Source of the DNA: an uncultured Holophagales bacterium
GTDB lineage: Bacteria > Acidobacteriota > Thermoanaerobaculia > Multivoradales > UBA5704
Assembly: GCA_963842525.1 (NCBI GenBank)
Contig: CAWJGT010000019.1
Span: forward strand, 320,001-384,000
Length of the DNA: 64,000 nucleotides
Reading direction: 5' to 3'
The translations under genes were made by a program, and so were the position numbers. Below, piece after piece: positions 1,996 to 39,684 of the stretch; position 1 is the stretch's first letter; each line of letters opens with the position of its first letter. The notes beneath the pieces were generated by a model. The model was not told the origin of the DNA. It saw only the letters and a list, made by a program, of their open reading frames with translations, and ran no database searches.

Positions 1996-2179
1996 GTGCG
2001 TCTCCTTTCTCCCGGTGCGATCCCTGGCAGCGTCGAGCTCGCTCTCACACGCGAGGGGGCTTTGCAAGGTCCGGGCCTGACCGGGAGAGGGGGGATCACC
2101 CGATTAGATATGCCAGCGGTGTTCAGGCGGTCTCATTGGTTCCACCACAGAGGGGAAAGGGTTTCAGGGATCGCCAGTT

Positions 2180-2230
2180 GTGACCACCTTCGGCCAGTAA
2201 GCGTGGAGTTGTGTGACCCGGGCGTGACCC
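2180..2230 (+). repeat. Candidate integrase arm-type binding repeats (left end)
   Basis: GTGACCA 2180, GTGACCC 2213, GTGACCC 2224, directly upstream of the integrase ATG. Confidence 0.55.
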
Positions 2231-2251
2231 AGTTATGCTATACTTACGCCC

Positions 2252-3565
2252 ATGAGCTACAACATCAAATTTGAGGATCGCACCCTGCGCGGTCTCCGCG
2301 TTCCCGATGGCAAGGACAGGCAGGAATGGAGTGATACTGTGGTCCCGGGACTTCGCTTCCGCAAGAGCGATAAGGGTCATGGCGCCTTCTCCGTCGTCTA
2401 CAGGGTCAAAGGGCAGGAGAGGCAGGACCGCCGGACGATCGGGCCCGTCTCCCGGGTCTCGGTCGCTCAGGCTCGGGAGGAGGCCCGGCAGGACCTCATC
2501 GCCGCCAGCTCAGGGCAGGGTCCGAAGAAACTCCGGACGGCGCCGCCTGTGGGACCCGAGGTGCCCGAGGCACCCGAGATGACGTTCGCCGAGCTCTTCG
2601 AGCTCTATATGGAACGCCACGCCCGTGAGAATCTCGTGACCTGGCCCGAGATCCAGCGCAAGATCCGCAAGGATGCGCTTCCCATCATCGGCCACATGCC
2701 GGCCGGGGAGGTGCGCAAGAGCCATCTCCAGCTGGTCATCGACCGGCTGATGACCGGAGGGCACGCCGTGACCGCTCGCGACCTGCTGATCGCGATTTCG
2801 GGAATCTATACCTGGGCCGAGGGGCGAGAGCTCGTCGAGTACAACCCTGTCCTGCGCTTCCCCTATCCGAAGCCGGCGCAGCCTCCGCAGCGCAGGAGCT
2901 TGGCCGACGACCAGCTCCGGACGTTGTGGTTCGCGCTCCTGGAGATCACCGACCATCCGGCGGCCGGCCAACGGGCGTCCCGGCGCAACGGGCGGTTCAC
3001 CTCAAGCAGGGATTTGTTGACCTTGGTGGTGCTGACGCGGCTCTCGTTGGGCCAACGCACCACCGAAACGGTCGGTATGCGCCGCCAGGACCTGGAGGCT
3101 CAGTGGTGGAATCTGCCGGGCTACATCGGGCGGCGGCGGTACACAAAGACGGGACGGGATCACCGGGTGCCGCTGGTTCCGCTGTGGAGCGAGTATGTGC
3201 TGCCGCGCGTCGAAAGGCTGACTGCCGGGCGGCCGTATGTCTTCGCCAGCGATCGGCGGGAGGACCGGCCGCTCAGTGCGTTGTCCATCGGGACCTTCTG
3301 TGCGCGGGTCGCCTCCAAGATGGGGTTTCCCTTCGTGGCGCGCAATCTGCGGACGACGTTCCTCACCTCTATGGCTCGGCTTGGGGTGCCACAGGAGGTC
3401 CGGCGGCGTCTGGTCAACCACAGCGATGGGACCATCGAGACGATCCACTGCAACCTTTATGACTACGACGCCGAGAAGTGGGCGGCCGGACTGCGTTGGG
3501 ACGCCCATCTGCGCAGCATCTTCTACGGCGAGACGGCTCGGGTGGAGCCTGCTCAAACCGCCTAG
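2252..3565 (+). CDS. P4-like tyrosine recombinase/integrase with N-terminal arm-binding domain; catalytic motifs degenerate
   Basis: N-terminal EWSDTVVPGLRFR...RRTIG...VSVAQARE arm domain. Catalytic R (GQRTTE), K (TKTG) and VNH present, but HxxR reads RNLR and the expected YN reads CN. Confidence 0.9.
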   Translation: MSYNIKFEDRTLRGLRVPDGKDRQEWSDTVVPGLRFRKSDKGHGAFSVVYRVKGQERQDRRTIGPVSRVSVAQAREEARQDLIAASSGQGPKKLRTAPPVGPEVPEAPEMTFAELFELYMERHARENLVTWPEIQRKIRKDALPIIGHMPAGEVRKSHLQLVIDRLMTGGHAVTARDLLIAISGIYTWAEGRELVEYNPVLRFPYPKPAQPPQRRSLADDQLRTLWFALLEITDHPAAGQRASRRNGRFTSSRDLLTLVVLTRLSLGQRTTETVGMRRQDLEAQWWNLPGYIGRRRYTKTGRDHRVPLVPLWSEYVLPRVERLTAGRPYVFASDRREDRPLSALSIGTFCARVASKMGFPFVARNLRTTFLTSMARLGVPQEVRRRLVNHSDGTIETIHCNLYDYDAEKWAAGLRWDAHLRSIFYGETARVEPAQTA

Positions 3566-3906
3566 GCAGCCCAATCACGCCGGCCCTCTTAAGGGCTGCT
3601 GCGGTCTGCTGACGTTTTTCATTGGTTTTCTCTAGATCCAGAGGGTTATGACGCCTTCGTAAGGCGAGGCGCCCTGAGAAAGCTCAGCGGAGCCCCGAGG
3701 GATTCCGGTGCTTCGGGCGGTGCTTGCGCCTCTGCGGGTCGCATGGCCGCCTGGACAACGTGCAGGGGCGGCACTAGCTGCTCCGGACGCAAGGGGTGTA
3801 CGGCGGGAGCCGTCCCCTTCTCCCCTCTTACCCCGCCGGGCTGGGTGGGGGAAGGTTGAACGGGCCGCCGGAGAGCAGGTTGCTCTCCGGGGCGCAGTTG
3901 AGCCTT

Positions 3907-4320
3907 TCATTTCCGCCTCGTCCTTTCTCTGTAGGTCTGGTCGAAGGGCACCGGGATGGTGCCGCGGGTCAGGGTCGAGCCAATGTCCCAGTGCCGTTTG
4001 CAGAAAGCGAGGAGGGGTTCGTCGAGGGTGATGATGGTGGCGCGGTCGTCTTCCTGGCGAGCGATGATGACGTTGTAGAGGCAGGCGATCCCCCGGTCTC
4101 CTAGGACGTGGGTGAGGTCGTCGATCACGAGGAGATCGGCGATGCAGTCCTGGTGGGCCCGGGTCTTGGTCTCTTCTCCGAGGAAGCCGAAGAGGGCATC
4201 GACGAGTTGGGAGGCTCGCCACTCGGCGGCCGTCTGGACGTGCGGGAGCCTCTGCCAGAGGAGCTCGGCGGCGAGCATGCTCTTTCCTGCGTTTCCTACA
4301 CCGTGCAGGACGGCGTCCCA
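3907..4320 (-). pseudogene. DnaC/IstB-like ATPase (helicase loader) remnant
   Basis: Reading in frame upstream of the 4278 ATG gives Walker A LHGVGNAGKSMLA; Walker B LLVIDDL; C-terminal LYNVIIARQEDDRATIIT. Confidence 0.7.
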
Positions 4321-4499
4321 GGCGCCCGGCCTCCGGTCCAGGGAGGCTAGGTCGTGACCGAGGACGTGAGGCAGGCGTTGGAGGTCGGTGCCTCCGGCGA
4401 GCCCCCGGGGGTGGGCGGGCTGGAGGGCTTCGGCCAGAGGGGCGAGGAGATCCTCTCCCGCGATCGGTACGGCGGCCCAGGGGGCTGCAGGAGGTGGCG

Positions 4500-5045
4500 G
4501 CTGAGATGGTAGGGCGGGTGGCGGGGGGTAGCATCCCGAGATCGCTACGCGGGCCGAAGGCAGCGCCCTGCGGTGCCGGAATGTTTTCGAGGAAGGCCTT
4601 GAGCAGGGCTTCGGGGTCTTGCTTTTTGTCTCTCTGGCCGGCCCGGATCTCTCGTTTCCGCCTCTCGGCGTCTGCCTTGCAGTGAGCGAGGTATCTCTCC
4701 CAGATGACGATCTTGAGGGGAGAATCGGGCAGGGAGCGCCAATGCCTGGACCAGCCGGCGATCTGGCTCGGGTTGTTGGGATGGTTGTAGCGGATGCCGT
4801 TGGTCAGGAAGATCAGGCCAGCTTTCCAATCGACTTGGACCAAGCCTTCGGGGAGCAGCTCAGCAGAGCGGTCGAGGAGTGCTTCCGGAGGCCATTCCAA
4901 GGACTCGGCCAGCGCCGCGGCGCCGATACGGATGACCCCGGCAGCGGACCAAGCTCCGGGCAGATGAGGAGGTGCTTGAAAAGTCCCCGGCCGGAGGGAG
5001 GCTCTGGAGAGAGGGCAAGGACTTTCGCGTCTCCGTGGATTTGGC
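4500..5045 (-). pseudogene. Phage replication initiator (replisome-organiser-like) N-terminal remnant, frameshifted
   Basis: Joining two frames gives IHGDAKVLALS..PPSGRGLFKHLLICP...PG/VIRIGAAALAESLEW...GLVQVDWKAGLIFLTNGIRYNHPNNP. Adjacent to the DnaC-like gene. Boundaries approximate. Confidence 0.6.
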
Positions 5046-5285
5046 TGCAGGAGGGGTTCGGAGAACGGTTTCCGGACGGTGGCGGACACCGTCCGCGCGC
5101 GCGTGCGCGCATCTATCTACTCATTCTCAACCTGGATACTGAACAGGCAGTCTCAGAAAGATAAGCCTTTTCGCGCGCGAGGCGCCAGCCCGCGAGGGGA
5201 GGGAGAAGGGACGGACGAGCACGGACCTCAAGGAGGGCAAGACCACCCCAAAGACCAGCAGGAGCGGACGGCCGGAGTCTTGTAT

Positions 5286-6668
5286 TCAGGCAGAGAGGAA
5301 CCGGCCCTCCTTGTACATCTCCCGCTGCACACCCTGGAACAGGTCGGCGGCGCGAATCTCCTGCGGATCGCGGACCACGGCCTTCAGGCAGGCATAGCGC
5401 AGCACGTTGACGATGCTGCCGCCCGCCAGCTCGTGGTCGCGGGCCAGCTTGCCCAGGTCCACGCCGGCAGCGAGACGGTAGGGCTTGTCCTTGAAGTTGT
5501 CCTCCCACAGGCGCAGCCGTTGCTCGGCGTCAGGTATTGGAAAATGGACCATGGCCTGGAAGCGCCGGGCGAAGGCCTCGTCGAGGTGCGAGCGGAGGTT
5601 GGTCGCCAGGATGACCAGGCCCGGGAAATCCTCGATGCGTTGCAAGAGATACGACACCTGCTGATTGGCGGCGCGGTCGTTCGCATCCCGCGACTCCGTG
5701 CGCCGGCCGAAGAGCGAGTCGGCCTCGTCGAAAAAGAGGATCCAGTCCTGGTGCCGGGCGTGATCGAACAGGCTCGCCAGGTTCTTCTCCGTCTCGCCGA
5801 TCCATTTCGAGACGACTTTCGACAGGTCGACACGGTAGACGGGGCGGCCCGTGGCCTTGCCCAACAGGGAGGCGGTGAGCGTCTTGCCGGTGCCGGGCGG
5901 GCCATAAAAAAGGGCACGGAAGCCCGGCTTCAACCGTTTGGCGAGCTGCCACCCGTTCATCAGCGTCTCTTCGTGCCGCACCCAGGCAAGGATGTCCTCG
6001 ACCTCGTCGCGCGACGGCGGATTGAGCACCAGGTCGTCCCATTCGTACGGTGTGGTGATGCGCTGCGCCGGGAACTCCGGGCTCAAGGGCGGCTGGTAGG
6101 AGCGCCCGGTGGTGAGCCGCTCGACATATTCGGCGGTGAGCTGCAGCCCCGCGGAATGCCACGGCTCGTCCTGGTGCCGGTGATCGAGCCGCAGGACGTT
6201 GTGTACATAGAGAGCGTGCTCGTGGCTGAACAGCTCGTAATAGCGCAGCCGTGCCGCGACGTCCTCGCCGGCGAGCAGGAACAGGGCGGTCTCCGCCGAG
6301 GGGAGGAAGCCGCCATGCGAGACTCCGGTCAGACCGCCGAACTCCGTGAAGCGGCGGTCGAGCGCCCGGTTCTGGATGAAGAACACGTCGAGCACGTCCG
6401 GCCGGATGTGCGGGATGAAGCTCAGGACGAGCACCAGCCGCCCGGCCGCTCCCAGGCCGAACCGGTGCACCACGTCCGCATAGGGGGAACCGGCCGCCGG
6501 CAGCGGCGGCGGCGCGAAGGCTTCCAGAGGATCGCCGGTCACCTCCTCCTGCCCGGCGTGCAGCTTCATCCGCAGCTCCAGGACCGCCCGGAACCAGGCA
6601 ATCTCGCGCTCGATGACATCGGCATTCGTGGCGTTCGCGGTCAGACCGGCAAGGTCGTCTGTGCTCAT
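5286..6668 (-). CDS. eCIS AAA+ ATPase (Afp15/Pvc15-like)
   Basis: GPPGTGKT Walker A, VDLSKVVSKWIGETEKNL, FFDEAD Walker B, ATN sensor, AFARRF. Last gene of the CIS operon. Confidence 0.95.
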   Translation of the reverse strand: MSTDDLAGLTANATNADVIEREIAWFRAVLELRMKLHAGQEEVTGDPLEAFAPPPLPAAGSPYADVVHRFGLGAAGRLVLVLSFIPHIRPDVLDVFFIQNRALDRRFTEFGGLTGVSHGGFLPSAETALFLLAGEDVAARLRYYELFSHEHALYVHNVLRLDHRHQDEPWHSAGLQLTAEYVERLTTGRSYQPPLSPEFPAQRITTPYEWDDLVLNPPSRDEVEDILAWVRHEETLMNGWQLAKRLKPGFRALFYGPPGTGKTLTASLLGKATGRPVYRVDLSKVVSKWIGETEKNLASLFDHARHQDWILFFDEADSLFGRRTESRDANDRAANQQVSYLLQRIEDFPGLVILATNLRSHLDEAFARRFQAMVHFPIPDAEQRLRLWEDNFKDKPYRLAAGVDLGKLARDHELAGGSIVNVLRYACLKAVVRDPQEIRAADLFQGVQREMYKEGRFLSA

Positions 6669-6672
6669 GGGC

Positions 6673-9025
6673 TCACCATGCTACCTGAAGAGGTTGCGGC
6701 ATCCAGCGGTGGAAGATCATGGACAGACTCCAGGGGACTTCGTCGACCAGCACGTCGACCGTCTTGCGCTGCACCCGCAGCTTCCAGCCCTCGGACGTCC
6801 TCTCCAGCCGTCCCTCGCGCTGCAGGAAGGTCTCCTGCAGGCCGGCGACCGAGGTGTTCTGCACGATCGTCCAGTTGGCAAGCAGGGAGCGCAGCAACGT
6901 ATCGCAGACCTCCCGTTCCCACTCGGTCGGCGCGATCTCGAGCGCGACGGGCGACTCCAATGGCAGGCCGCAGAGGATCTTGTTCAGGGCGAGGGCCGGC
7001 TCCGGGCTTGCTGTACAGCCATGGATCAGATATTGCAACAGATGGACGGCGCGCGAGGCCGTCTCAACATCGCGCAGTCGGACCTTGCCTGCCGCGTCCT
7101 CGCCCAGCAGGTCCAGCATCTTGAAGAGGTGCGGCAGGAAGGCCCCGGCCAGCACGAGGCCGGCGTTGTCGACATAGAGCGGCTCCGCCTCGTCCCCGGC
7201 CTTCGCCTGCCGTACCGGAGGCCGGTTCTCTCGCCGCTTGCGGGCCGGCGGCTTCCAGAGCGCCAGGAGGCGCGGCCGGCCGTGCCGCAGAGCGGCTGCG
7301 GGCGCGCATGACCGCCCGCGGCCGCCCGCCGGCCGGCGCTCTCGAACAGCCTCGCGCCGGCTGTGGCACGCGCGGACGCATCCCCCCGGTAGCGCCGGGC
7401 CACGTGCTCGAAGAACTCCACGGTGAGCCGCTCCACCGAGACCTGCCCTCCCTGGACGGCGGGCCAGGACCTCCAGCAGGAAGCTCCAGAACGCCCGCCG
7501 GCCGGTGAGCGCCGGATGGCCGGGCGGAGCTGTCTCTCCCCAGGCCGCGGACAGCACCTCGGCGGCTTCGAGCAGCGCGCGGTGCCGCCGCGGCGCCAGC
7601 TTTTCGACCACCCGCTCCAGGGCGGGCTCGGGCAGGAGCTTCATCCACCGCTGCCGCAGCCGCCGGTCCGCCGCATGGCGGGCGAGGAAGTCCGCGGCGC
7701 CCACCGTCTCGTCCGGCCTCCCCGGGCACCCGCGGTCCGCACCGCCGCGAGGAACGTCTCGTCGCCGGCCGGCCCGCCCACGGCTTCGCGCAGCAGGAAG
7801 CGCTCGACCACCGCGGGCAGAGGGGACGGGAACAGCTCCTTGAGCAGCCGGTGATAGGAATCCTCCATCAGCCTGGCTCCCTCGTGAACGAGCAGGGCCT
7901 CGCCGAGGAGCGCACGGCGGACGCGCTCCTCGGGCCGCGGCCGGTAGGGCGCCGGAATCCGGGCGAAGAGGTGCAGCAGCGCCTTGAGCGTCCTGGCTTC
8001 CGTCGGGCACAGGCGGTCGAGCGCGCTTTCGAAAAGCGCCTGCGGGATCGACCCCACCAGCTCCGAGCGCCGTTCCGGCTCGCTGTGGAAGGCGGAGATG
8101 AGCTGCTCCGCGTCCGCCGGGGCCTTACACCCGCCCCAGGCCCAGCTCGCGCACCAGGTCGCCCACCACGGCCGGCAGAGAAGAGCGAACGGAGCGTCGG
8201 GCTGCCGTCCGATCCAGGCCCTGGCGCAGCGCCGCGAGCACGTCCGCATAGTCCAGACCCTCGCGAGCGGCGATGCCCCGCAGCACCGAGCGCACGAAGC
8301 TCCGGCGGTTGAATTGCGAGCCCGGATCGCGCACCAGATAGGCCTGCGCCAGCAGCCAGAGGACGCGCGACAACGCTCGCTCGGAGAGCGGCACCACCGG
8401 CTCGCCGCGGTGGGCCTCGCGGATGTGGCCGATGTAGGCGATGATGAGCGCCGCGTGCTCCGGCGCGAGGAGGCGGACCAGCTCACGGAGCCCCCGCTCC
8501 CGGAGCTGGAGCACGATACGCTCCAGCACCCGCGTCTCGCGGCCCAGCCGGAGCATCACCTCGACGATCCCTTCCGGATCGCTCGCCGCCATCTCCAGCA
8601 CCAGCTCCTCCAGCGAGAAAGCCGAGCGCTCCGGCACCCAGAAGGGGAGTGTGCCGCGAAGCAGAAAGTGCTCCAGCAGCTCGCGCTGCACCGCCTCCTC
8701 GGACCGCGAATGGCCCGCCTCCGTGGCCTCCTCGCCGATCTCCCCCAGCGCCGCCTTGAGAGACCGGCGCAGCTCCACCTCCAGCCGCTCGACGACCGCC
8801 TCTTCGAACCCGGTAAACGGCACGGTGCCGAGGTCGATTTTCAGCTTCGCGATCCGCGCCTGTCGTCCCGGCACGTCGATCTCGTCAAAAACCCTTTCGA
8901 TCACGGGCAGCGGCCCGTCGGCGGTTGAAGTCCGAGAGGCGCGGCTGGAGGGCCAGTGCTACGGCCTGCGAGGGGGTCTCAAGGTCGAGGGTCTGGTGGC
9001 GGAGAGTGTGGTGGAAGGGGTTCAT
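6673..9025 (-). CDS. eCIS tape-measure protein (Afp14-like), several frameshifts
   Basis: N-term MNPFHHTLRHQTLDLE..IAKLKIDLG..FLLRGTLPFW. C-term YVDNAGLVL..FLPHLF..LNKILCG..LQETFLQREGRL..VPWSLSMIFHRWMPQPLQVAW. Confidence 0.85.
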
Positions 9026-9031
9026 GAGCGC

Positions 9032-9541
9032 TCAATTCTTTCCTCGCAGTGCCCTCGTCCCCGTCACTTCCGCCTCCCGTTCCAGGCCCGCATCGTCGTT
9101 GATCGCTGTCTCTCGGACCTGCATCGTTGGCCGCACCCGGCCCTGCATCTGCTGCACGACGTGCCGGCCCTCATGCGGCAGGTGTCGCTGCTGTCCCGGC
9201 GCGACGTGGATGTCCTGCCCTGGGTGTAGGCATGGGCCTGAATTTGCGCGGGCTTGGGCGAGTTGTAATGAACCCGCACGTCGGAGAGGTCCATGCCGAG
9301 GGGTGCCCAGGCCGGTCTTGAGACCGTCGCTCAGGCCAGTCGAACTTTCGGCTCCGGTCGTGCTGTTCACCGCCTCCCGGAGCTGAAGGGCGTTCTGGAC
9401 GCCACGGCTTTGATTCGCCGCCTCTTCCCAAGCCGCGAGCTGGCTCACTTTGGGACTCTGCACCTCCGCGGCTTGCGGGGGGGTGCCTTTGAGTGCTTCG
9501 CTTGGCCAGCTGGCGCGCTTCTTCTTTTTCCGCATGCTCAC
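9032..9541 (-). CDS. Stand-alone DUF4157 (eCIS core) domain protein, two compensating frameshifts
   Basis: TGLSDGLKTG / MDLSDVRVHYNSPKPAQIQAHAYTQG / DIHVAPGQQRHLPHEGRHVVQQMQGRV..NDDAGLEREA; HExxH present. Confidence 0.85.
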   Translation of the reverse strand: MSMRKKKKRASWPSEALKGTPPQAAEVQSPKVSQLAAWEEAANQSRGVQNALQLREAVNSTTGAESSTGLSDGLKTGLGTPRHGPLRRAGSLQLAQARANSGPCLHPGQDIHVAPGQQRHLPHEGRHVVQQMQGRVRPTMQVRETAINDDAGLEREAEVTGTRALRGKN

Positions 9542-9553
9542 ATGCGTAGCACA

Positions 9554-15166: not shown

Positions 15167-15171
15167 GAGCG

Positions 15172-15596: not shown

Positions 15597-15601
15597 CGCG
15601 T

Positions 15602-15901: not shown

Positions 15902-15921
15902 GGGAACCTCCATTGTCTCCA

Positions 15922-18419: not shown

Positions 18420-18421
18420 TG

Positions 18422-24716: not shown

Positions 24717-24730
24717 CGGCTTCGCACGCC

Positions 24731-28136: not shown

Positions 28137-28187
28137 GATAGAACCTCCTGAATGATCCTGCCTGCGCTGCGTCGCATTACCCCCACC

Positions 28188-28214
28188 ATCGCAAACCGCC
28201 GCCGACAGGAGACA
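28188..28214 (-). promoter_or_regulatory. Putative ECF promoter, copy 2 (upstream of the effector pair)
   Basis: Minus strand TGTC-TCCTGTCGGCGGCGGTTT-GCGAT. Confidence 0.7.
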
Positions 28215-28249
28215 TCGGCGGCGAAGGTTCGTCCCCCAATGGAGCGCTG

Positions 28250-28996: not shown

Positions 28997-29050
28997 CGTT
29001 CGTCTCCTTTGTTCCTTCAGGAACAGGTTGTAAGGCGCTTCACCCCTCTA

Positions 29051-29077
29051 ATCGCAAACCGCCGCTGGCAGGAGACA
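29051..29077 (-). promoter_or_regulatory. Putative ECF promoter, copy 3 (upstream of the thaumatin-like gene)
   Basis: Minus strand TGTC-TCCTGCCAGCGGCGGTTT-GCGAT. Confidence 0.7.
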
Positions 29078-29170
29078 TGGGCGGCGAGCAGCCGGCAAAA
29101 CGCGACGAGCCGCCTGACGGCGGCTCGGGAAGGGCGATGCGTGGTGGGAACGAGGAGATGAGAGGGCTTG

Positions 29171-29644
29171 CTACCAATCGCTTCCGTCGTCGTGGATCTT
29201 GGGGTCGTCCCAAATCGGCTGGTTGTCTGCCCCGAGGACAGCCAGTCGATAAATCCACTTGCTCTGACTTCCAAAGTTGAGGGTGACCAGGGACGTTTTA
29301 TCGTCATTCTGATCTGGCCATTTCGTGATGGCGGGCGTAACTTCACCACTTGAAGGTAGGGACCAGTGTTCTGCCACCGAAGGCAGCGGTTGGCCTGCCG
29401 CGGCAACCTGGAACCCTGCGAAGAATGGGTTCTGTGCGTCGAGCGGGCCTTCGGCGAGCGACCAGTTCTTGGTACGGAATTGGACGATCCTCGAAAGAGG
29501 AGGCGGATAGATGTTTCCGCCGGAATCCACTTGCCAGCCGCGACAGCAGTGGGTACAAGCGTACGAGAAACGGCCGTAGCGTCGATCGAAGAAGACGGTG
29601 ACGATGCAGCTCGGCGTATGGGGGGTATCTATGAGGCCTATCAT
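29171..29644 (-). CDS. Hypothetical 157-aa beta-rich protein
   Basis: ATG behind an AAGGAG RBS; MIGLIDTPH...WIYRLAV...IWDDPKIHDDGSDW. Confidence 0.7.
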   Translation of the reverse strand: MIGLIDTPHTPSCIVTVFFDRRYGRFSYACTHCCRGWQVDSGGNIYPPPLSRIVQFRTKNWSLAEGPLDAQNPFFAGFQVAAAGQPLPSVAEHWSLPSSGEVTPAITKWPDQNDDKTSLVTLNFGSQSKWIYRLAVLGADNQPIWDDPKIHDDGSDW

Positions 29645-29711
29645 GGTCGCTCTCCTTTCGTCACGGAGGCCGATGGGCGGGCCTCCGAGGATTCGGGATC
29701 CTCTCAGTTTT

Positions 29712-29738
29712 ATCGCAAGGCGCCGAAAAATGAGGACA
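29712..29738 (-). promoter_or_regulatory. Putative ECF promoter, copy 4 (directly downstream of the kinase)
   Basis: Minus strand TGTC-CTCATTTTTCGGCGCCTT-GCGAT, same 18-nt spacing as the other copies. Confidence 0.65.
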
Positions 29739-29754
29739 CACCGGCGGACGGGAT

Positions 29755-32417
29755 TCATCGAGCGCCACCGGCCTGGTGCTGGCAGAGCCCGGAGAGCCCG
29801 GGCTCCGAGTAGCTCAGAGCCTTCAGCGTGTTCTCCACAGGGCGCGCTTCTTCGAGGCGGCCGAGGCAGCGCAGCGCAGCGGCCCAGGGAGCCAGCAGGC
29901 GGCCGTCGCGGCCACCGCGGGCGAAGGGAGCGATCGTCTTTTCGGCGCGCTCGAAGTCGGCCCTGGCGGCGGCCGGCGAGCCTTCGAGGCTGCCGAGCAG
30001 CAGGTAGCATTGGCTGAGACAGCGGTGGACGTCACGATCCGGATGCCGTGACGCGGCGAGCTCCTGGAGGATCTTCACCGCGTCGAGTAGGCTGGCGCGG
30101 GCCGGCACGCCATGGGCTACCTGGAGGAGCGCGAGCTGGTAGAGACCGATCGCCTTGGTGCGGCGCCAGGCGTGAGGCGTTTCCCGGGCGAGAAGCTCGT
30201 CGATGATGCGCCGTTCGGCAGCCAACGACGTTCCGGCCTGGGCCAGGTCGCCCCGGGCGTAAGCGGTCCTGCCGAGATGGAGGTGGCTCCAGGCGAGCTT
30301 GAACTGCCAGGAGGCGTTGGCCGGGTCGTGCGCCACGAGGGCGGTGAAGAGGGCGCGCGCCTGCTCGAAATGCCCGGCAGCCGCCGGCCAATCTCCGAGG
30401 AGAGAGAGGTGGATGCCCAGGCGGCTGTGGCTGGTGCCGAGGAGGTCCCGCAGCTCGAAGCTCGCCGGCTCCGCCGCCAGCAGAGACTTTCGGATCTCGA
30501 ATTCCGCTTGCAGATGCTCGCCCGCCTCGGTCAAACGGCCCAGGTCCTGGAGCACTACGCCGACGGTGTTGTGAGTCGCCGCCATCTCGGATTGGGCCTC
30601 GCGGTTCGCCGGCTCGGCCGCGGCCAGCTCCTTGTCGTTCGCGAGGGTGGCCAGGAACTGTGCCAGCGCCGCATCGAGATGGCCCTCGGCCTGGAGCAGC
30701 GAGCCGAGGTTGCTGTGCGCGTAGGAGAAGCTCCCAACGCCACGTGAGATTGGCGGGGTCCTTTTCCACCAGGCGCCGGGAGACGTCGAGATAGGCCTCG
30801 AAGGGCTTTCGCGCCGCCGTGAGGTCGCCCTGTTGCCAGTGGACGAAGCCGACCCAGTACTGGCTCTGGCCGAGGGCGAAGAGCCGTTCGCCGTCGTCCG
30901 GCGCGAGCTCGGCCAACCGCCGGGCGAGGGCCAGCGATTCCTCCATCGGCGCCACCGCGCCTGCCAGATCGCCTTGCTGGATGCGCACGTCGCCGATCTG
31001 GTAGAGCATCTGCGAGCGGCGGAGGAGCTCGGCCTCGCTGAGCTCCTCCGCCGGCACCGCCGCGAAGTACTTCATCGCTTCGCCGCCGACGTCGTCGAGG
31101 ACGTCGAGCCGGCCCAGGGAATCGAGCTTTTTGTGCAGGTCCACCACCATGAAGCGGATGAGCTGCTCGGCCTGGCCTTGCCGCAGCTCGGCGCGCTCCC
31201 TGGCCGCGTCGGCGCGCAACGCGAAGACTGCCACGGCCACGGAGGCGACGAGAAGGCTCGCCGTTGCCGCAGCCGCCAGGCCGGCGAGGAGCTTGTTGCG
31301 CAGGACGAAACGGGTCAGGCGATAGGCGAGGCCGGCGGCGTAGGCCTCGACCACCTCGCCGTCGAGATAGCGCTGGAGGTCCGCGGCCACGGCCCGCGCC
31401 GAGGCATAGCGCTGGTCGGGATCGCGGGCGGTGCAGCGCAGGATGATCGCTTCGAGCTCCACCGGCAGGGTCGGCAGGCGCTGGCGCGGCGGCGGCAGAT
31501 CCTGATCGAGGGCCTGGCGCAGGATGGCGACCGTGTCCTGCCCGGTGAACGGGAGCTTGCCGGTGAGCAGCCGGTAGATGGTGATCCCCAGGCTGTAGAT
31601 GTCCGAGCGGCGGTCGACCGCGGCTGGCGAGGTGCTCAGGCGTTCCGGCGCGATGTACTGGGGCGAGCCTGCGACCGCGTCCATTGCGTCTGCATCTCCG
31701 AGGTCGGTGGCGAGGCCGAAATCGGTGACGAGGGCCTTGAGGTCGCCGTCGGGCGTCTGCTCGACGAGGACGTTCGAAGGCTTGACATCGCGGTGCAGCA
31801 GGCCTTCGCGGTGGGCGGCGTGGAGCCCTTCGGCGGCCTGGGCGAGGAGCCGTACCCTGTGCTCCAGCGAGAGAGTGGCGCCAGCCTCTGCCAGGGTGCC
31901 GCCGGCGACGTAGCGCATCGCGATGAAGGGCTGGCCGTCGAGCTCGCCGCTGTCGTAAATTTCCAGCACATTGGGGTGCTGCACCCGTGCCTGGACGCGT
32001 GCCTCGCCGAGGAAGAGGCGCAGGATCGCCGGATCCTCGTGGGTGAGGAGCTTGAGCGCCACGGACCGGCCGAGCTGGCGGTCGAAGGCCAGCATCACAC
32101 GTCCCATGCCGCCCTCGCCCACGCATTTCCCGGTCGTAGCGTTCGCCGGCCGGTAGCGCCGCGCCCGGCGCCGGTTCGTCGGGCCCATCGGAATCGCCTG
32201 CGGTGCCGGCCAGTCGGACGGCTGCAGGGGTGGCGAGAAACGAGTCGGAAAGGTTTTCGGCGGCGGCAAGACGGCGGCGGGCTTCGGCGGCCAGCCCGAA
32301 ATCGCTGGCGGCGAGGTCGCTGAGGTAGGTTTCGCGCTCGGCGCCGTCGAGGCCGGCGGCCATCAATACGGCCTCGTCCAGGCGCAGGTGGCCACAGGGC
32401 GCCGCCGGCTCGTTCAC
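29755..32417 (-). CDS. Membrane Ser/Thr (Hanks-type) kinase with C-terminal TPR-like domain; frameshifts near 32130 and 30730
   Basis: GEGGMGRV, VALK, HRDVKPSN, DFG, APE, SDIYSLG; TM helix LLAGLAAAATASLLVASVAVAVFAL; helical repeats follow. Confidence 0.92.
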
Positions 32418-32995
32418 ACGATGGGCCTCAGCTCTCCGTGGAGCCAGACCCGGACCGTTTTCCAGTCGCGGACCACGGTGCGCGGCGTGACTTCGAGGAC
32501 TTCCGCCGTCTCTTCGACTGACAGCCCGGCGAAATAGCGCAGCTCGACGAGCTGCTCGTGGCGCGGTTGGATCCCGGCCAGCTTGACCAGGGCCTGATGG
32601 ACCGCCAGGACTTCTTCGGGACGGCGAGCCAACGGATCGGCGATCTCCGGCAAGATCCCGTCGAGCGTCAGCGTCTCCCCTTCACCGCGTTTCTTGGACA
32701 GTTGATGACGCGCTTCGTCGGCGAGGACGAAGCGCATGGCGCGGGCGGCGACGGCGAAGAAGTGGCGGCGATCGCTCCAGTCCACTTCGCTGCCGAGCAG
32801 GCGGAGATAGGCCTTGTGGACCAGGCTCGTGGCCTCGTCCCGGGCTCCTCGGCCCTGACGGCGCAGCACGCCGCGGGCGAGGCTCTTGAGCTCGCCGTAG
32901 AGGATGTGCCAGAGCTCGTCCAGAGCGTCGCCGCTGCCGCCCTGCCAGGCCTGGAGGAGCCGGGTGATCTCGCCGGGGCCTTTGTCGTTCTGCAT
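32414..32995 (-). CDS. ECF sigma factor, TIGR02999/ECF43-like (kinase-associated)
   Basis: EITRLLQAW..ALDELW..LYGELKSLA..ATSLVHKAYLRL..DRRHFFAVAARAMR..LVELRYFAGLSVEETAEVL..RTVVRDW. Stop overlaps the kinase start. Confidence 0.92.
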   Translation of the reverse strand: MQNDKGPGEITRLLQAWQGGSGDALDELWHILYGELKSLARGVLRRQGRGARDEATSLVHKAYLRLLGSEVDWSDRRHFFAVAARAMRFVLADEARHQLSKKRGEGETLTLDGILPEIADPLARRPEEVLAVHQALVKLAGIQPRHEQLVELRYFAGLSVEETAEVLEVTPRTVVRDWKTVRVWLHGELRPIV

Positions 32996-33249
32996 CGGCA
33001 ATCGGCACCGGCGGCTCCGAACCTCCAAGCGCCCCGGGCGTCTCCAGGCACTGTTCCAGTGGTACTCCTCATTTACTGGCGGAAAGTTGCAAGAGATAAG
33101 CACAGATCGACTCCCGCGGTCAACTGGCTTATTGGAATAGTGCCATCGAAGAATGTTGATGTCGGTCGCGCGTACGCTGCGTGTTTGGGAGGGGGAAGGC
33201 TGTGAGGACGGGACACGGACTGGCACGGACGGCAAGGAGAGGGCGAGTG

Positions 33250-33949
33250 ACCAAAGCATCATTTTGATCACCGGATTGCCCGGTCGGGCGGCTTGGCGGA
33301 AATGACTGTCCGGCAATGATTTGCAGGCGAGAAAGCGTCGTGGAGCCCCCTCGCGCCCACCAGAACAGCCGAAAACGAAACAAGTTTCGCTTTTTGCGAC
33401 GCGGAAAAGCCCGCCGGGATTGAGTTTTCTCGATTTTGAAGGTCAAAAAGGCTGGTTCAAACCGGTGTGGAAAGGCAACCGCAGGAAGGTAGTTAAAACC
33501 AGTGGTCTGGTGAGGGTCGGGAGGGGGCGCCGCTGCTGGCGCGGGACGAGCCACCTGAGCGGAGGGAGAGACACGGACGGACACTCCCCCGCCCGGACCC
33601 TCACCCCGACCCTCTCCCACCCGTAGTCCCTTCCCTCCGGGAGAGGGCGCCCCCGACCAAAAAGCCGGACTGACCAAAACTCATGTTCTGATCAGTGGTT
33701 TTCCACACCGGACGGCGTCGCGGAAATGCCTGTCCGGCTTGAGTTTGCTCGCACTGAACCGTCCTCCAGACCCCCCCGCGGCCGGCTCTACCACGGAAAA
33801 CGAAACTGAGTTTCGTTTTCTGCGACGCGGAAACGCCCGCCGGGATTGGGTTTTCCTCGATTTTGAGGGGGCGAAAAAGGCGGTTCAAACCCCTGTAGAA
33901 AGGCAACCGTAGGAAGGTGGTTAAAACCAGCGGTCTGGTGGGGGTCGGG
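33250..33949. repeat. Two diverged ~275-bp non-coding direct repeats (about 33250-33521 and 33672-33949) separated by a REP element
   Basis: Shared blocks e.g. GCGGAAATG.CTGTCCGGC, GAAAACGAAAC..AGTTTCG.TTT.TGCGACGCGGAAA, GAAAGGCAACCG.AGGAAGGT.GTTAAAACCAG.GGTCTGGTG. Confidence 0.85.
33595..33647 (+). repeat. REP-like element of the CCCTCACCCC..CCCTCTCCC..GGGAGAGGG family
   Basis: GGACCCTCACCCCGACCCTCTCCC...GGGAGAGGG hairpin; same family as 51870-52024. Confidence 0.75.
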
Positions 33950-34284
33950 CCGAGGCCCCTTGCAGGGGCCGGAGGGGGGTGGGCGGGGCGGGGTGGTCAA
34001 GATAAACCCGGCAGTTTGGCGCAGCGCTTCGAAGGCATGGCTCCATCGGCCAGAGGAGCCAATCTGGCGGACCTTGTTGCGGGGGGAGGCCCGGGTAGGT
34101 GCCCGCCCCTGGTTAACATAGTGCAGTCCATTATGTTAAGGCGAAGCCCGTAGGCGGGGAGTGGCGCAGGGCGAGGGTCGGATAAAGTCGTTCATTTATC
34201 GGACCCTCGCCCGGCGGGAGGGGGAGCCGCCCCCGCCGGAGCCAGGGGCGGGCAGCTCCCGGGCCGGAGGGTGGGGGAAATCAA

Positions 34285-36295
34285 GATGGGTGGGTGGACG
34301 GAGATTTGGGTGGGCGCACCGGCGGATCGACGGCAGGCTTTCCACGACCACAGTCTCCGGGGCGGCCACCCGGCCTTGTTGAAACACGGCCGCCATCCCC
34401 ACGGCGGAATGGACCTTGAGAGGGTCGGGTGGCGGGGTGCTGCCATCGCACGGCGGTGCCCGGCGCGCGGGGCGGCGGGCTTTGCGCAGCGTCTTGTGGG
34501 GGCGCGCCTGCGAGGAAAGATCCGAGGACGCGGGTGGGTGGCGGGACGTTGCCATCCCCACGGCTGGTTGGACCTCGCGCGGGTGGCGGGACGCTGCCAT
34601 CGCCGCGGCGGCTGCCTGGCGCGCGGGGTGGTAGGTTTTGCGCCAGCGCCTCTGTGGGGGCGCGCCTTCTCGGGAACTCCGCATGGGTATGTTGCCTTCC
34701 CCACCTTCGGATGGAGCTCGAGCGGGCGGGAGCAGGTTGCGGAGCGTCAGCGGAGTCAAGCTGCGTCGGCGGAAAGCTGCGGGGACCACGAGAGCTCTAC
34801 CGCCAGAGTAGCTCCGGTCGGCGGAGCGGGTGGGCGGCTGGGTGGGCCGAGCCGGAGCTTCTCTGGCGGGGCACGGCGGCTCGCAGGCCCTCCTCATCAA
34901 ATAGGTGGGCGGCCGGGGATTGGGTGGGCGCGCCGGAGGACCGGAGGCCGGCTGTTCACGGCCGCAGGCTTCGGGGCTGCCACCCGGCCTTGCAGGATGG
35001 AGGCTCCGACTGCGAAGAGGCTGAGCGCAGAGAGGCGGGAGCAGGTTGCGGAGCGCCCCGCGCGGAGTCAAGCTGCGGGGCGGAAAGCTGAAGGGGCCAC
35101 GATGGCTCTACCGCCGATGGAGCGAGTACGCCCCCGCACGGAGCTGCATCGGCGGGGCACAGCGGCTTGCAGGCCCTCACCATCAAATGGGCGGGCGGGT
35201 GTGGAATCGGGGTGTGCGTCCTGGAGGACCGGAGGCCAGCTGTTCATGGCCGCAGGCTCCAGGACGGACACCCCAGCCTTACAGGATGGAGGCTCCGTCG
35301 GCGAAGAGGCTGAGCGCAGAGAGGGCGGGAGCAGGTTGCGGAGCGCCCCGCGCGGAGTCAAGCTGCGGGGCGGAAAGCTGAAGGGGCCACGATGGCTCTA
35401 CCGCCGATGGGGCGAGTACGCCCCCGCACGGAGCTGCATCGGCGGGGCACGGCGGCTCGCAGGCCCTCACCATCAAATGGGCGGGCGGCCGGGGAATTGG
35501 GTGGGCGCGCCGGAGGACCGGAGGCAGGCTTTTCACGGCCGCAGGCTTCGGGGCGGCCACCCGGCCTTGCAGGATGGAGGCTCCGACTGCGAAGAGGATG
35601 AGCGCAGAGAGGGCGGGAGCAGTTCGGCGGAGCGCCTGCGCGGAGCCGATCTGCGGGGCGGAAAGCTGCGGGGACCACGATCGCTGAGCCGACAGAGGAG
35701 CGGAGGTCGGCGAACCGGACGGGCCGGGGGTGGTTCGCCGACCCGGAGCTGCTCTGTCGGGGCAAGACGGCTCGCAGGCCCTCCCATCAAATGGGCGGGC
35801 GACCGGGAGATTGGGTGGACGCGCCGGAGGACCGGAGGACGGCTTTTCACGGCCGCAGGCTTCGGAGCGGCCACCCGGCCTTTTCAAAAGACGGCCGTCG
35901 TCCCCGCCGGCGGGCGGACCTCGCGCGGGTGGGTGGATGGCGTCGTCGTCCCCGCCCAGGCTGTTGGGCGCCCGGGGTGGTGGCGTGTGCGTCAGCGGAG
36001 TGGTGGGGGCGCGCCTTTCACGGGAGTCTCCGAGGACGCGGGTGGGTGGCCGGGACGTTGCCGTCGCCGCGGTGGGATCGACCTTGCGCGGGTGGTCGGC
36101 GGGGCGCCGCCGTCCCCGCCCGGCTGCGGGAGGCAACGTTTCCGGAAACGAAACTCGGCGGCTGCTACCACCGCGGCGGCCGCCTGGCGCGCGGGGCGGT
36201 GGCGTGTGCGTCAGCGATCAGGTGGGGGCGCGCCTTTTCGAGAACTCCGGGGACGCGGGTGGGTGGCGGGGAGGTTGCCATCGCCGCGAGAGCTG
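34285..36295. repeat. G-rich mosaic of ~290-310 bp degenerate tandem repeats
   Basis: Motif TTGGGTGGGCGCGCCGGAGGACCGGAGGC..CACGGCCGCAGGCTTCGGGGC.GCCACCCGGCCTT recurs near 34305, 34920, 35207, 35497 and 35811; near-identical 290-bp-offset block at about 35020-35185 and 35310-35475. Confidence 0.85.
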
Positions 36296-36324
36296 GCCGG
36301 AGAGGGGATGGGTGGGGGTGTTGC

Positions 36325-38290
36325 CGATCACTTGAATCCGTAGAAATTTGAACCACGAGGTCGGCAGCATCATCCCGCGCGAAGCGGGGTCGGTGGGGCG
36401 CCGGGCCGACGACGCTCAGAGGCTGTTCAGCCGCGCTGCCGCGGATATGCGCCAGCCGTTTCCTCCGATCGACCATGGAGCCCCCCACCTGCCAGGGGAC
36501 CCTTCCCCCTCGGCCACTCCCCCGCTATCCAGGCGGGCAGGTGAGAGGCCTTAATTTAACCGCCACGCCGGCGGCCCTCACTTCGCCCGAGTTCACCCCT
36601 CGAACGTCCTCTGCCTCTCCGACAGCGAGGGAGGCACCGCCGGCCAGGCCCCACTTGATCTCCCCTGAATGGCGCCACCCTCTATCCCTCCCGTGCCCTC
36701 GACGACCACCACCCCGCCTAGCCCCACACCGCCGCCGACCTCCTCCGCCAAGGCACACCAACCTGCCCCTCGGCCAGTTCCTCCAGCTCACTTCCATCGA
36801 GCACCCAACTAACGGCACCCCGTCTAGGCGAGGCCTCTCTCCTCTGCAGGCGGCCCTGATGTCAGAAGCGCTGACCCTAATGGAACACAGAGTTGCGCCC
36901 TCATCCCGCAAGATATAACATCAATACTGTAAAACCTCTTTTGTGGAGAATGGATGATGCGATTTCCTCCTCCCTCACGGGGGCGTAGCGACGCCCTGCA
37001 AGGCTATTTCCCCGGCGGCCGGCCCATACTTCCCGGTCTGGTGCTTCAGGCGCGCGCCGCCAACCTGACGGCCGGCGACGCCACCGCCCTGCCCGCCAAC
37101 TTCTCGCTACCGGCCCAGCGCGGCCAGGAGCTACCGCCCGCCCTGCGCGAGCACATTGAGCGCACTTTCGGCGCCAACCTCTCCTCGGTGCGCATCCACG
37201 TCGGGCCGCAGGCTTTGGCCATCGGCGCGCTGGCCTTCACCGTCGGCGACACCGTCGTGTTCGCCCCCGGCCAGTATGCCCCCGACACCCCGCGCGGCCG
37301 CCAGTTGCTGGGGCACGAGCTGGCTCACGTGCTGCAGCAGCGGGCCGGCCGGGTGCACAACCCGCTGTCCAGCCTGGCGATCGTGCAGAACCCCGCGCTG
37401 GAATGCGAGGCCGAACGCATGGGGCTAAAGGTGCTGATTGCCGCTCCGCCGCTTGAGCGGGCACGCGGCGGCCGGCGCTCGTCGAGTTCCTGCGGGGGGC
37501 GGTGCCAGGACCGCTGCGGGGGCAAGTGCGGCGGCGGGCAGGGCGCGGTGCAGCCCATGATGAGCTCCAACACCAAGACGGACCCGCTTGGCATGATGAC
37601 CCGAGGGGCCTTCAACGCAAAGGAAATGGAGCTGAACCGCCAAGGCCTCAGCCTGGAGAACATCCTCAACGGAACGCGCATACCCAAGAAGCCGGACAAG
37701 TATGGCGCGACCTGCCTGGGCTATCCGGGCGTACAGACCATCTTCGTGGGGGGGCAGCGCTACGACATTCCTTACGACCCGGCCCCTCATTGGTATGCCT
37801 GCTTCGATCCGTGGTCAATCGCCAAAGTGCTCATCGCCTATACCGGCGGGCGTATGGGCGATGCCAACGCCGCCAACTTCGCTAGCCACCGCGCCGCCAC
37901 CCCGGCCTTCTATACCTGGCACCATGTCGAGGATTACGACCCGGGGACCAACCGCGGACACATGCAACTGGTACAGAGCGCGCCGCACAACAACTGCCAC
38001 CACCGGGGCGGTGTCTGGATGTGGCAGAACCACCACGGGCAACTCTACGGCCCGTAATCCGTCACCACCCCCTTGCTCCGCTGGACGGTGGAATAGAGCA
38101 TGTAGTTGTCGTGCAGCCCCGACGCCGACAGCACCGTCACCCCACCGCAAGCATGTGGTGAACCTCTTCGCGGCAGGAGGCGGCCCCCTGTTAACTCTCA
38201 CCCCGATCCGTAGGAATTTGGACAATTCTGGCGCGGAATGATGATGCTGCTCGACCTTATGGTCCAGATTTCTACGGATTCTGGTGATCG
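36325..38290. mobile_element. Cassette bounded by ~50-bp imperfect inverted repeats, enclosing the DUF4157-WHH gene
   Basis: Left CGATCACTTGAATCCGTAGAAATTTGAACCACGAGGTCGGCAGCATCATC; right (reverse complement) CGATCACCAGAATCCGTAGAAATCTGGACCATAAGGTCGAGCAGCATCATC. No transposase inside. Confidence 0.5.
36954..38057 (+). CDS. DUF4157 plus WHH-type HNH nuclease, putative eCIS toxin
   Basis: GQELPPALREHIERTFGANLSSVRIH..ALAFTVG..FAPGQY..GRQLLGHELAHVLQQ; C-term DANAAN..YTWHH..MQLV..H..HHRGG. Confidence 0.9.
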   Translation: MMRFPPPSRGRSDALQGYFPGGRPILPGLVLQARAANLTAGDATALPANFSLPAQRGQELPPALREHIERTFGANLSSVRIHVGPQALAIGALAFTVGDTVVFAPGQYAPDTPRGRQLLGHELAHVLQQRAGRVHNPLSSLAIVQNPALECEAERMGLKVLIAAPPLERARGGRRSSSSCGGRCQDRCGGKCGGGQGAVQPMMSSNTKTDPLGMMTRGAFNAKEMELNRQGLSLENILNGTRIPKKPDKYGATCLGYPGVQTIFVGGQRYDIPYDPAPHWYACFDPWSIAKVLIAYTGGRMGDANAANFASHRAATPAFYTWHHVEDYDPGTNRGHMQLVQSAPHNNCHHRGGVWMWQNHHGQLYGP

Positions 38291-39538
38291 CCTCTCAAGA
38301 AAGTACCCAGTTTCTTCCGGCCATTGTCCGCGCCCCGGGGCCGGTTGCGACGCTATAGTTGGGGAGTCGTCCGCTTCCAGCGGCCGGAGGGCAGAGCGCA
38401 GGACGGTCCAGCCCCCGCGTGGGTGGTGGGCTTCTTCTTTTCCTTTTCCTTCCTGCCTCTTATGGCCTGCTCGTCGAGGCTTTGTGTAGCCGGTCAGCTT
38501 CCATAGCCTTGGGCGGGGGAAAGTGATCGTTCCCACGAAGGATGGAACTCGAATGGGCGGCGGGAGGTGATTGCCCCCGCGGTGTCCGGAGCTTGCGCGA
38601 GGAGGCAATTGCATCCAGCGCGGGCGGTGGAGCTGACCGTCGCCATGGACGGTGGGACTCGCGAATTGGGTGGATGGAGTGGCCGTTTTTGGGAAATCGC
38701 ATAGATAAATGGCTATGCGAAGCCCTTCTTTCCGAGTTCATAAGGCGCCCCGGGCCGAGCCCAGGCCTGCGTGCTGGCTTGTGTAGCCCGCGTGCGGACT
38801 TGCGTGCAGACCTGCGTGCGGCTCCCCCAGAGCTACAGACTTTGCGTGCGGCTTGCGCGGCATTCTGCGGCCCCCACCCCCCTCCGCTCCCTTCGGTTCA
38901 GCTCTCTCGCGGATGAAAATTTCGGCGGAACGGAACGAAACCTGAGGAAATCGCGGAATGACGAATCTAGAATTTTCTCACTAGATCTCAAATGGAGCTC
39001 GGAGCCTGCCTTCGGCGACACAGGGATGAAACAGCGTGCCACTGCCAGCCACCCGCCGCCCACTTCGTTAGAACCGGGGGGCAGGTGCCGCGGTGACCGG
39101 ACCTAGATGGTAGGCTGCCGATGTAGGCCGCTGGAGTGCTCAGCACGCGAACCGACTGGCGAGCCAAGCGGCTTGGCCACTCGATGGCCGTGGCTGGCCG
39201 CTGGCGATCCAGGCGGCTCCAGTGCCTCTGCAAGGCGCTCTACGGCGTTTCCCGGCCGGCGGCAAGGGGCACAAGGGGCGGCACAGCCAACGGGCCCACA
39301 GGCTCAGAGGAGCTGTCAAAAGGGGCTTGGCTTTGATCGGACTGCTGGAGCACGATCGCAAGCAACGGGTGAGAGTGAGGGACCCTGCCCACCGGCCGGC
39401 GATGACGCGGACGCCTTGCTCACAGGAGTCGAGCCCCCAAGCCAGCCAGAGGCATGCTCGGAGGGCCTCGGGTTCCCCCTTCAAGAGGGCCGCGATTCCG
39501 CGGCTCAACAGTCGGCGAGGTGCCCCGCGGCAAGTCTT

Positions 39539-39636
39539 GTTGACACTTTGTTACCCCCTAGTGACCCGGGAGCGCTAGTGAAAAGTGAAGACACTGAAAA
39601 CAAACAACTTACACTCAGTGCCCGGGTCTGGGGGGA
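39539..39636 (+). repeat. Candidate right end of the island: arm-type repeats, AT-rich host-factor-like motif and core
   Basis: GTTACCC 39550 and GTGACCC 39561 (11-bp spacing as on the left), CTGAAAACAAACAACTTAC near 39594, GGGGGGA 39630. Confidence 0.5.
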
Positions 39637-39684
39637 CGAAGGCGAGGCGTTATAGACTCTGCGGAAGATTCGAGGAGACACGAC

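Follow-up and report, generated by a model that had tools for sequence, protein, structure and literature searches.

An integrase island family with REP-like targets as the probable vehicle of an extracellular contractile injection system in a Holophagales genome

A stretch of 64,000 nucleotides from an uncultured Holophagales bacterium (assembly GCA_963842525.1, contig CAWJGT010000019.1, positions 320,001 to 384,000; hereafter the window) carries a gene cluster for an extracellular contractile injection system (eCIS). This locus raises the question of whether the cluster sits on a mobile element, where such an element would begin and end, and how it would have entered the chromosome. A preliminary description had proposed an integrated element with reconstructable attachment (att) sites. 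Based on comparisons within the genome and with related genomes, we consider it highly probable that positions 2081-39636 form a ~37.5-kb island, inserted by its own P4-like tyrosine integrase through recombination of a ~240-bp attP with a short chromosomal site. Judged by the homology of its backbone, the island belongs to a family that has at least seven members in the genome of this soil acidobacterium.

Ends of the island and its sister copies

Element ends were searched in 61 genomes including the own genome (G000), and their limits were then fixed by local BLAST. Comparison of positions 2000-39700 with the own genome (blastn) returned six further left ends (C4:39, C25:171214, C9:766780 on the minus strand, C27:61039, C23:154189 and C23:423051) and five further right ends (on C4, C9, C25, C23 and C12). 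Besides these places in the own genome, 2076/2081-2250 matched the same-genus genomes G004, G002 and G001, and 39502-39637 matched G004 (twice), G001 and G002. The left homology starts at 2076 for the own-genome copies and at 2080-2081 for the three same-genus genomes, while the right homology ends at 39637 in three of four cases and at 39634 in one. In all seven left ends of the genome T(C/G)ACCCG comes directly after CCGGGAGAGGGGGGA, one copy being short by one base, and in all six right ends CG comes directly after C(C/T)GGGTCTGGGGGGA. The two 15-bp cores first described at 2081-2095 (CCGGG-AGA-GGGGGGA) and 39622-39636 (CCGGG-TCT-GGGGGGA) were confirmed and represent the base-exact ends of a multi-copy element family.

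The target-type AGA is retained in 7/7 attL sites and the element-type TCT, left of GGGGGGA, in 6/6 attR sites, which places the exchange to their right, within the shared GGGGGGA. Of just seven TCT cores in the 9.9-Mb genome, six belong to right ends of the family. As in lambda-type sites, this short overlap, common to all attL and attR, lies between inverted core sites, and the proposed 7-bp overlap flanked by an inverted repeat fits every copy. Joining the inner sides reconstructs an attP with a perfect 7-bp inverted repeat for C4, C25 and C9 (CCGGGTC-T-GGGGGGA-T-GACCCGG) and a weaker CGGGT/ACCCG repeat for the window, C27 and both C23 copies. Within the 64-kb window, the generalised pattern CCGGGNNNGGGGGGA is found in two places only, namely at both cores, and dinucleotide-preserving shuffles gave a mean of 0.09 matches, with two or more in 0/100; because this pattern was picked after the fact, the family comparison is the stronger argument. 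An integrative element between these ends is thus supported by the homology limits of the sister copies as well as by the adjacency of the flanking genes in relatives (see below).

Four of the sister islands are complete (C4, 40.4 kb; C9, 40.7 kb; C25, 30.8 kb; C23, 45.5 kb), and two copies are cut by contig ends. DNA common to the window island and its sisters covers 2076-3590, parts of 3663-5277, 33206-36343 and 38743-39638, with none within 5840-30810. The sisters (31-46 kb) share the integrase, an Xis-like gene, a ~3-kb hairpin array and both att arms, and differ in cargo. Among 121 open reading frames (ORFs) of the four complete islands (called by a simple GC3 heuristic that small genes may escape; Pfam, E ≤ 1e-5), the C4 sister carries an RHS toxin, an MrfA-like helicase, PIN-TPR-GreABC and a TOTE primase-helicase; C9 an NrfA-type cytochrome c552, NapC/NirT, an MtrB/PioB porin and a P-type ATPase; C25 a TIR-NB-ARC protein, a CAP12-type TIR protein and a radical SAM protein; and C23 a BREX system (BrxL and a methylase), SIR2-TIR and nSTAND-WD40 proteins. 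A second small slot between array and right arm holds a DUF900 hydrolase in C23 and an HTH_17 protein in C25. This difference in cargo characterizes the family as a common chassis with interchangeable cargo. The backbone order is int, xis, sometimes a DnaC/IstB-like module, a cargo slot, the ~3-kb hairpin array, the second small slot and the right arm. A relaxase, a coupling protein or a type IV secretion system was found by Pfam neither among the 53 window ORFs nor among the 121 sister ORFs.

As previously described, an integrase lies just inside the left end; it is an intact 437-aa ORF (PF00589, 35.3 bits, cutoff 27.1; PF22022, 31.9 bits, cutoff 27; phrog_1, E 1.1e-39) with six paralogs in the genome at 75-82% amino acid identity. 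Aligned to chain 4a8e_A, it shows Arg I (GQR), the LR of box II (LRTTF, first His unconserved) and His III (NHS); the alignment ends before the Tyr, for which NLYDYDAEKW offers a candidate. This segment presumably resembles a P4-type C-terminus.

The pairs of GTGACCC-like repeats with 11-bp spacing noted earlier inside both ends (2213/2224, GTGACCC both; GTTACCC at 39550 and GTGACCC at 39561) are conserved in 7/7 left and 6/6 right arms, and the AT-rich motif reported near the right core is present at 39577-39612 and conserved in 6/6 right arms. In the alignment of the seven left arms (P'), the GTGACCC repeats are invariant in all seven and closely precede a TATACT motif and the ATG of the integrase, the region up to the ATG being invariant or nearly so. 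The right arm (P) is 76-86% identical in DNA to five other right ends and keeps TTGACAC, GKTACCC, GTGACCC and the AT-rich run in 6/6 cases. Across the whole window GTGACCC is not enriched (9 found vs. 11.0 expected). By analogy with lambda-type systems, the GTGACCC pairs would be arm-type integrase sites and the AT-rich stretch a bending site. Core and arms together give an attP of ~240 bp. The longest ORF of the right arm (39107-39655) shows just 37-52% amino acid identity to the sisters, with one short piece at 76%, and is probably not a real gene. Since the protein identity of the array and right-arm ORFs lies below the expectation from DNA identity and no family matched, both regions were treated as non-coding.

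In 6/6 sisters an Xis-like (excisionase) gene of 83-104 aa follows int on the opposite strand (phrog_66, E 2.7e-9). The sister proteins are mutually 90-95% identical, the longer form in C27 and C23b, with longer N-terminal parts, reaching 70-72%. Only the ends of this gene are kept in the window, meaning that ~190 bp of its interior were lost, and tblastn of the Xis-like protein against the window gave no match. Phage replication remnants had also been suggested next to the integrase. Decayed homologs of two C9 genes do lie at 3910-5043; a role in phage replication finds weak support in one of the C9 genes, whose homolog is weakly similar to IstB/DnaC-like AAA proteins (NCBIfam, E 2.8e-6; PHROG DnaC-like, E 0.0085).

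The backbone array, which is built of tandem units and has sister arrays in L047, L048, L051, L054 and L056, matched no Pfam or PHROG family and no Rfam family at gathering score or E ≤ 1. Its 120-nt unit aligns over 21 copies with 83% mean identity and folds as an extended hairpin. At two of its pairs, three sequences show joint CG-to-UA replacements, and the G-U pairs speak for the plus strand; these three sequences are close kin, which makes the covariation weak. A covariance model found 57 units in G000, all within arrays, as well as units in 8/60 other genomes, 5 of these 8 also having a left-arm match. In arrays adjoining a right end, the units always stand in island orientation. Four more arrays not beside a recognisable right end (C9:34363-41587, C1:594603-597877, C20:129457-132374 and C8:102306-106800) may be remnants or parts of other elements.

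Integration target and empty site

We next considered the flanks of the copies. Each of the six other copies is preceded on its left by the left half of a palindrome (CCTCACCCCC..CCCCCTCTCCC..) resembling repetitive extragenic palindromic (REP) elements, and the core is the inner arm of this palindrome. An intact REP-like element has the order left half, core, CGTAGCTG.., variable loop and mirror-image right half. The sequence after the sister right ends matches this intact continuation (CGTAGCTG), the flanks of attL and attR being in agreement. A regular expression for left half plus core found 545 instances on both strands of the genome; the 15-mer CCGGGAGAGGGGGGA is present 338 times, and 214 times with the next CG (CCGGGAGAGGGGGGA|CG). 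REP-type left flanks were also found in 5/5 copies of G004, G001 and G002, and in G004 the repeat's right half comes after both right ends. Thirteen integrase loci were returned from other metagenome-assembled genomes (MAGs), labelled Holophagales, Thermoanaerobaculia or Acidobacteriota; after two without a left flank were dropped, 6/11 showed a REP-type junction and 5/11 a different core, ATCGTCGCCAAWGACGAT, located by eye at the 3' end of a DnaB-like reading frame. Intact REP-like elements hold the core and both flanks, and represent the empty attB at the level of the family. Judged by these flanks, the CCGGGAGAGGGGGGA|CG arm of the REP-like palindrome normally serves the family as attB.

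The integrases behind the ATCGTCGCCAAWGACGAT core (L035, L036, L037, L038 and L042) are ~78-80% identical over the best segment and would be a sister lineage with another target. At one REP-like element, C9:1673590, TCT replaces AGA beside the overlap. This single case is the sole triple change among 519 cores in REP context (AGA 507, single changes 9, GAG 2, TCT 1) and may be the scar of an integration-excision cycle. Furthermore, a degenerate target-like site, a REP-like left half followed by CCGGGAGAGGGCG, lies at 33590-33660 of the window, inside the island's own ~305-nt repeat region.

The outer REP halves are missing on both sides of the window copy, and only ~30 nt around its core are similar to the inner REP; its site is therefore read as a secondary, look-alike (pseudo) site. 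The integrase would recombine attP with the chromosomal core, the exchange taking place within the 7-bp GGGGGGA, and the window copy would have used such a look-alike site between the genes for a small membrane protein and an M48 peptidase. In line with the preliminary description, ARAGORN finds no tRNA gene near either end.

Orthologs of the M48 gene were among the matches listed for 34/60 other genomes. Ten M48 loci were examined, nine from this search and G005:C59. Six of them (G001 and G005 of the same genus, G026, G010, G033 and G018; tblastn, E ≤ 1e-3) have a homolog of the small protein next to M48 in divergent orientation; in the remaining four this small, poorly conserved protein was undetected. 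The intergenic DNA between the two genes measures ~100-200 bp in the relatives and has TGCAA and TATAGAC motifs in common with both window flanks. This direct neighbourhood is the empty site. The joining of the 1756-1995 gene to M48 expected from the preliminary description is hence found in 6/10 related loci, with the exact attB sequence seen in none. An insertion splitting the M48 promoter, with TGCAA and TATAGAC on either side, was also considered and dropped, as a sigma-70 scan of the G001 empty site gave no promoter-like site.

Several observations weigh against this reading. The genomes with an empty site share only 72-78% DNA identity in M48, which makes a base-level reconstruction of attB from relatives impossible. 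The empty site of G001, a member of the same genus, does not hold the ~25-nt G-rich REP-like core that attB needs, leaving the pseudo-attB deduced rather than observed. In G004 and G019, what comes after the small gene is a REP-like element and then a different gene, with no M48 in the 3 kb examined. An empty site at the strain level was not found: exact-match scans with one uninterrupted string over the left junction and another from the right flank gave 0 matches in metagenome_contigs and 0 in genome_contigs, collections that may omit the window's own records. An attP junction or excised circle had 0 matches in the assembly, and excision was unobserved. In public read sets there was no contig across either junction state; this search returned soil metagenome contig sets only, each with ≤0.14 of the sampled words, and public contigs matched 1-6000 in short identical pieces only (e.g. 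1898-2048 and 2210-2403), none of them spanning 2081-2095. The arm-binding domain of the window integrase scores 25.9 bits, just under the Pfam cutoff of 27, compared to 37.5-39.3 bits in its paralogs. The window, C27, C23a and C25 have an uninterrupted integrase frame and C4, C9 and C23b an apparently split one, so that part of the family may be inactive, unless these 3/7 frameshifts are indel errors of the MAG. With its internally deleted xis, the window copy has no intact directionality factor; we infer that it produces no excisionase itself and either stays permanently at this site or relies on paralogous Xis-like proteins. In the comparison of composition across the ends, suggested as a check, neither end showed a sharp step in GC content or skew, the sole standout being an internal low-GC patch at 25-28 kb.

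Cargo of the island and its origin

The features of the island and its flanks are summarized in Table 1. A Pfam scan of the 53 window ORFs found the eCIS gene set (PF17482/PF04984, PF06841, PF19266, PF04717, PF04965, PF19268, PF00004 and PF14065, the tape measure extending over two ORFs). Slot 1 holds the eCIS machine and a kinase/sigma factor pair, and slot 2 an eCIS_core-WHH toxin. The kinase and sigma factor have a paralogous pair at C25:499.7-501.9 kb (57-59% amino acid identity). The eCIS structural proteins have a close paralog in no sister island, the eCIS being unique to the window copy; other loci of the genome similar to eCIS or type VI secretion systems, on C3, C9 and C30, are 22-46% identical and lie elsewhere.

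Table 1. Positions of the island's features and flanking genes in the window.
Feature	Position	Strand	Details
Left flanking host gene, small membrane-anchored protein	1756..2067	-	ORF; start probably 1995, as in the preliminary description
attL core, CCGGG-AGA-GGGGGGA (CCGGGAGAGGGGGGA)	2081..2095	+	Overlap (crossover) region 2089-2095; 15-mer heads all 7 left ends
P' arm of attP	2096..2251	+	Two GTGACCC direct repeats, 2213-2219 and 2224-2230, just upstream of integrase start
Tyrosine integrase, 437 aa	2252..3565	+	Arm-binding, core-binding and catalytic domains; PF00589, PF22022, PF13356
Xis-like (excisionase) gene remnant	3562..3634	-	3562-3590 and 3591-3634 match the two ends of the C23 sister's 83-aa gene
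Decayed backbone genes	3663..5277	-	Truncated, frameshifted homologs of the C9 sister's 269-aa IstB/DnaC-like and 327-aa proteins (blastn; tblastn pieces in different frames)
eCIS core cluster, slot 1	5286..25351	-	AAA ATPase, tape measure (two ORFs), baseplate/gp25, spike, tube proteins, gp19-like tubes, sheath, Pvc16-like
Four cargo ORFs	25441..30010	-	No significant family match (Pfam, PHROG, NCBIfam)
Ser/Thr kinase with TPR	30032..32269	-	Pfam
Extracytoplasmic function (ECF) sigma factor	32414..33316	-	Pfam
G-rich, apparently non-coding repeat array	33206..36343	+	~305-nt units 33245-33546, 33668-33973; ~120-nt hairpin units 34885-35005, 35171-35294, 35461-35582, 35776-35896
Slot 2	36475..38614	mixed	147-aa ORF; eCIS_core and WHH nuclease toxin 36954-38057 (+), PF13699 and PF14414; 138-aa ORF (-)
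P arm of attP, conserved right arm	38743..39621	+	GTTACCC/GTGACCC at 39550-39567; AT-rich 39577-39612
attR core, CCGGG-TCT-GGGGGGA (CCGGGTCTGGGGGGA)	39622..39636	+	Overlap 39630-39636; right-end homology stops at 39637
Right flanking host gene, M48 (CAAX-type) peptidase	39685..40992	+	Pfam

A 20-kb eCIS query had a full-length match only in G019 (other genus, 68-78% DNA identity) and G056 (other family). In the five same-genus genomes the eCIS was not found, with matches to the AAA gene at most. The orthologous cluster of G019 (C6:135360-158251) shows 36-77% protein identity, and no homolog of the integrase or backbone was detected within 115-190 kb of its contig C6; the G056 ortholog likewise lies outside any such island. 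Orthologs without the island backbone in G019 indicate that the cluster moves horizontally, untied to this island family.

This bears on whether the eCIS arrived with the island, for which we have a slight preference, or whether a smaller island integrated and the eCIS, the regulators and the toxin entered the cargo slots later, in place, which we regard as rather unlikely. Such later filling is suggested by the wholly different cargo of copies with 76-94% identical backbones, which implies that cargo turnover on the backbone happens, and by the island-free orthologous clusters in G019:C6 and G056. It is opposed by the eCIS-related content of both slots, on either side of the array, for which one acquisition before integration is simpler; moreover, within the island the eCIS is flanked neither by an insertion sequence (IS) element nor by a second pair of att sites.

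A more basic objection, that the two 15-bp sites are chance or REP-derived matches in a native chromosome with a stray integrase, is in our estimate very improbable. With 338 occurrences of CCGGGAGAGGGGGGA in the genome, a single copy at 2081 is unremarkable, and a clear GC step is present at neither end. However, a chance match would not account for a TCT core that is nearly confined to the family's right ends, for sister homology that starts and stops exactly at both sites, or for flanks that are adjacent in relatives. That the locus is a temperate prophage with tail genes mistaken for an eCIS is less credible still: the integrase, the lambda-type att sites and the sheath, tube and baseplate genes would suit it, but capsid, portal and terminase families were absent from the Pfam scan of the 53 ORFs, the PHROG scan and the scan of the sister ORFs, the cluster has the eCIS hallmarks (AAA ATPase, CIS_TMP, CIS_tube, Pvc16_N and the eCIS_core toxin), and sisters on the same backbone lack any tail genes.

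Further features of the cargo and its surroundings were recorded. A 1.2-kb internal duplication (19159-20359 and 21379-22577, 91.5% identity) comprises a gp19-like tube gene, with identical products, and the 3' part of the sheath gene; the ORFs at 19865-20395 and 20328-21347 resemble a broken second sheath copy, and the G019 and G056 clusters have a single best match each for the duplicated tube and sheath genes. The CIS tape-measure match is split over 6673-8010 and 8125-8904 with a gap of ~115 nt, and the G019 ortholog likewise gives a two-piece match. Between 25000 and 28000 the GC content falls to 52-54%, compared to ~65% around it; the 678-aa and 335-aa ORFs without family match located there may have been recently acquired and are possibly target-binding parts of the eCIS. 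Outside the island, a TIR protein (Pfam) is encoded at 1110-1718 to its left, and a group II intron lies at 43282-44712, with a reverse transcriptase/maturase ORF and, at 44632-44712, a match to the Rfam model of domain V-VI; C1, C12 and C9 hold copies of it with 90-93% identity.

Comparison with known systems and implications

The island family resembles lambda/P4-type islands in its integrase domains, the 7-bp block within inverted core repeats, the direct repeats of the arms, the AT-rich stretch and, in the sisters, the Xis-like gene beside int. It differs from them in its target, which is no tRNA, tmRNA or single-copy gene but a REP-like repeat with hundreds of copies, in the presence of seven islands in one genome, and in that transfer, packaging and relaxase genes were undetected. 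Dispersed repeats are also used by filamentous prophages of Neisseria, which integrate into dRS3 repeats via a Piv-like transposase. IS elements of the IS3 and IS110 families that target REPs have been documented (ISPpu9/10, ISPa11, ISPsy8; PMC1525189). They are likewise mobile elements with an abundant extragenic palindromic repeat as specific target, but measure 1-2 kb and use DDE or Piv-like transposases, whereas the present family has a tyrosine recombinase and cargo islands of 31-46 kb. Keyword searches of the open-access literature, which prove no absence in print, returned no report of a tyrosine-integrase island targeting REPs and none of an eCIS on an integrase island.

The window cargo has the gene set of eCIS of the Afp/PVC/MAC type, for which a survey describes signs of horizontal transfer around the operons (PMC8213781). 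Compared to the surveyed systems, the present one has a vehicle delimited down to its exact att sites, and its toxin occupies a separate slot beyond the repeat array. Islands without transfer genes of their own are described in a recent preprint as hitching on conjugative elements (bioRxiv 10.64898/2026.01.13.699239). They likewise consist of an integrase and cargo with no recognisable conjugation or relaxase genes; an origin of transfer (oriT) or helper element was not found in the present family, and this is an analogy only.

Tentatively, the family could constitute an undescribed type of tyrosine-integrase island, with a high-copy REP-like attB offering more than 200 landing sites, at least seven islands in one genome and swappable cargo (eCIS, BREX, TIR/STAND, RHS/TOTE, Nrf/Mtr), in which the same-oriented hairpin array would serve mobility or control as a functional RNA or DNA component. 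For the eCIS, the island provides a defined vehicle with base-exact ends, which would explain its patchy distribution, the cluster being undetected in the five same-genus genomes examined and present in another genus and another family. A dispersed-repeat target would allow several islands with different cargo to stack in one chromosome, escaping the limit of one attB per genome. The recombinase, with its short (~25-30 bp), naturally multi-copy target, is directly testable, and the family represents a natural experiment on the swapping of cargo modules on a fixed backbone.

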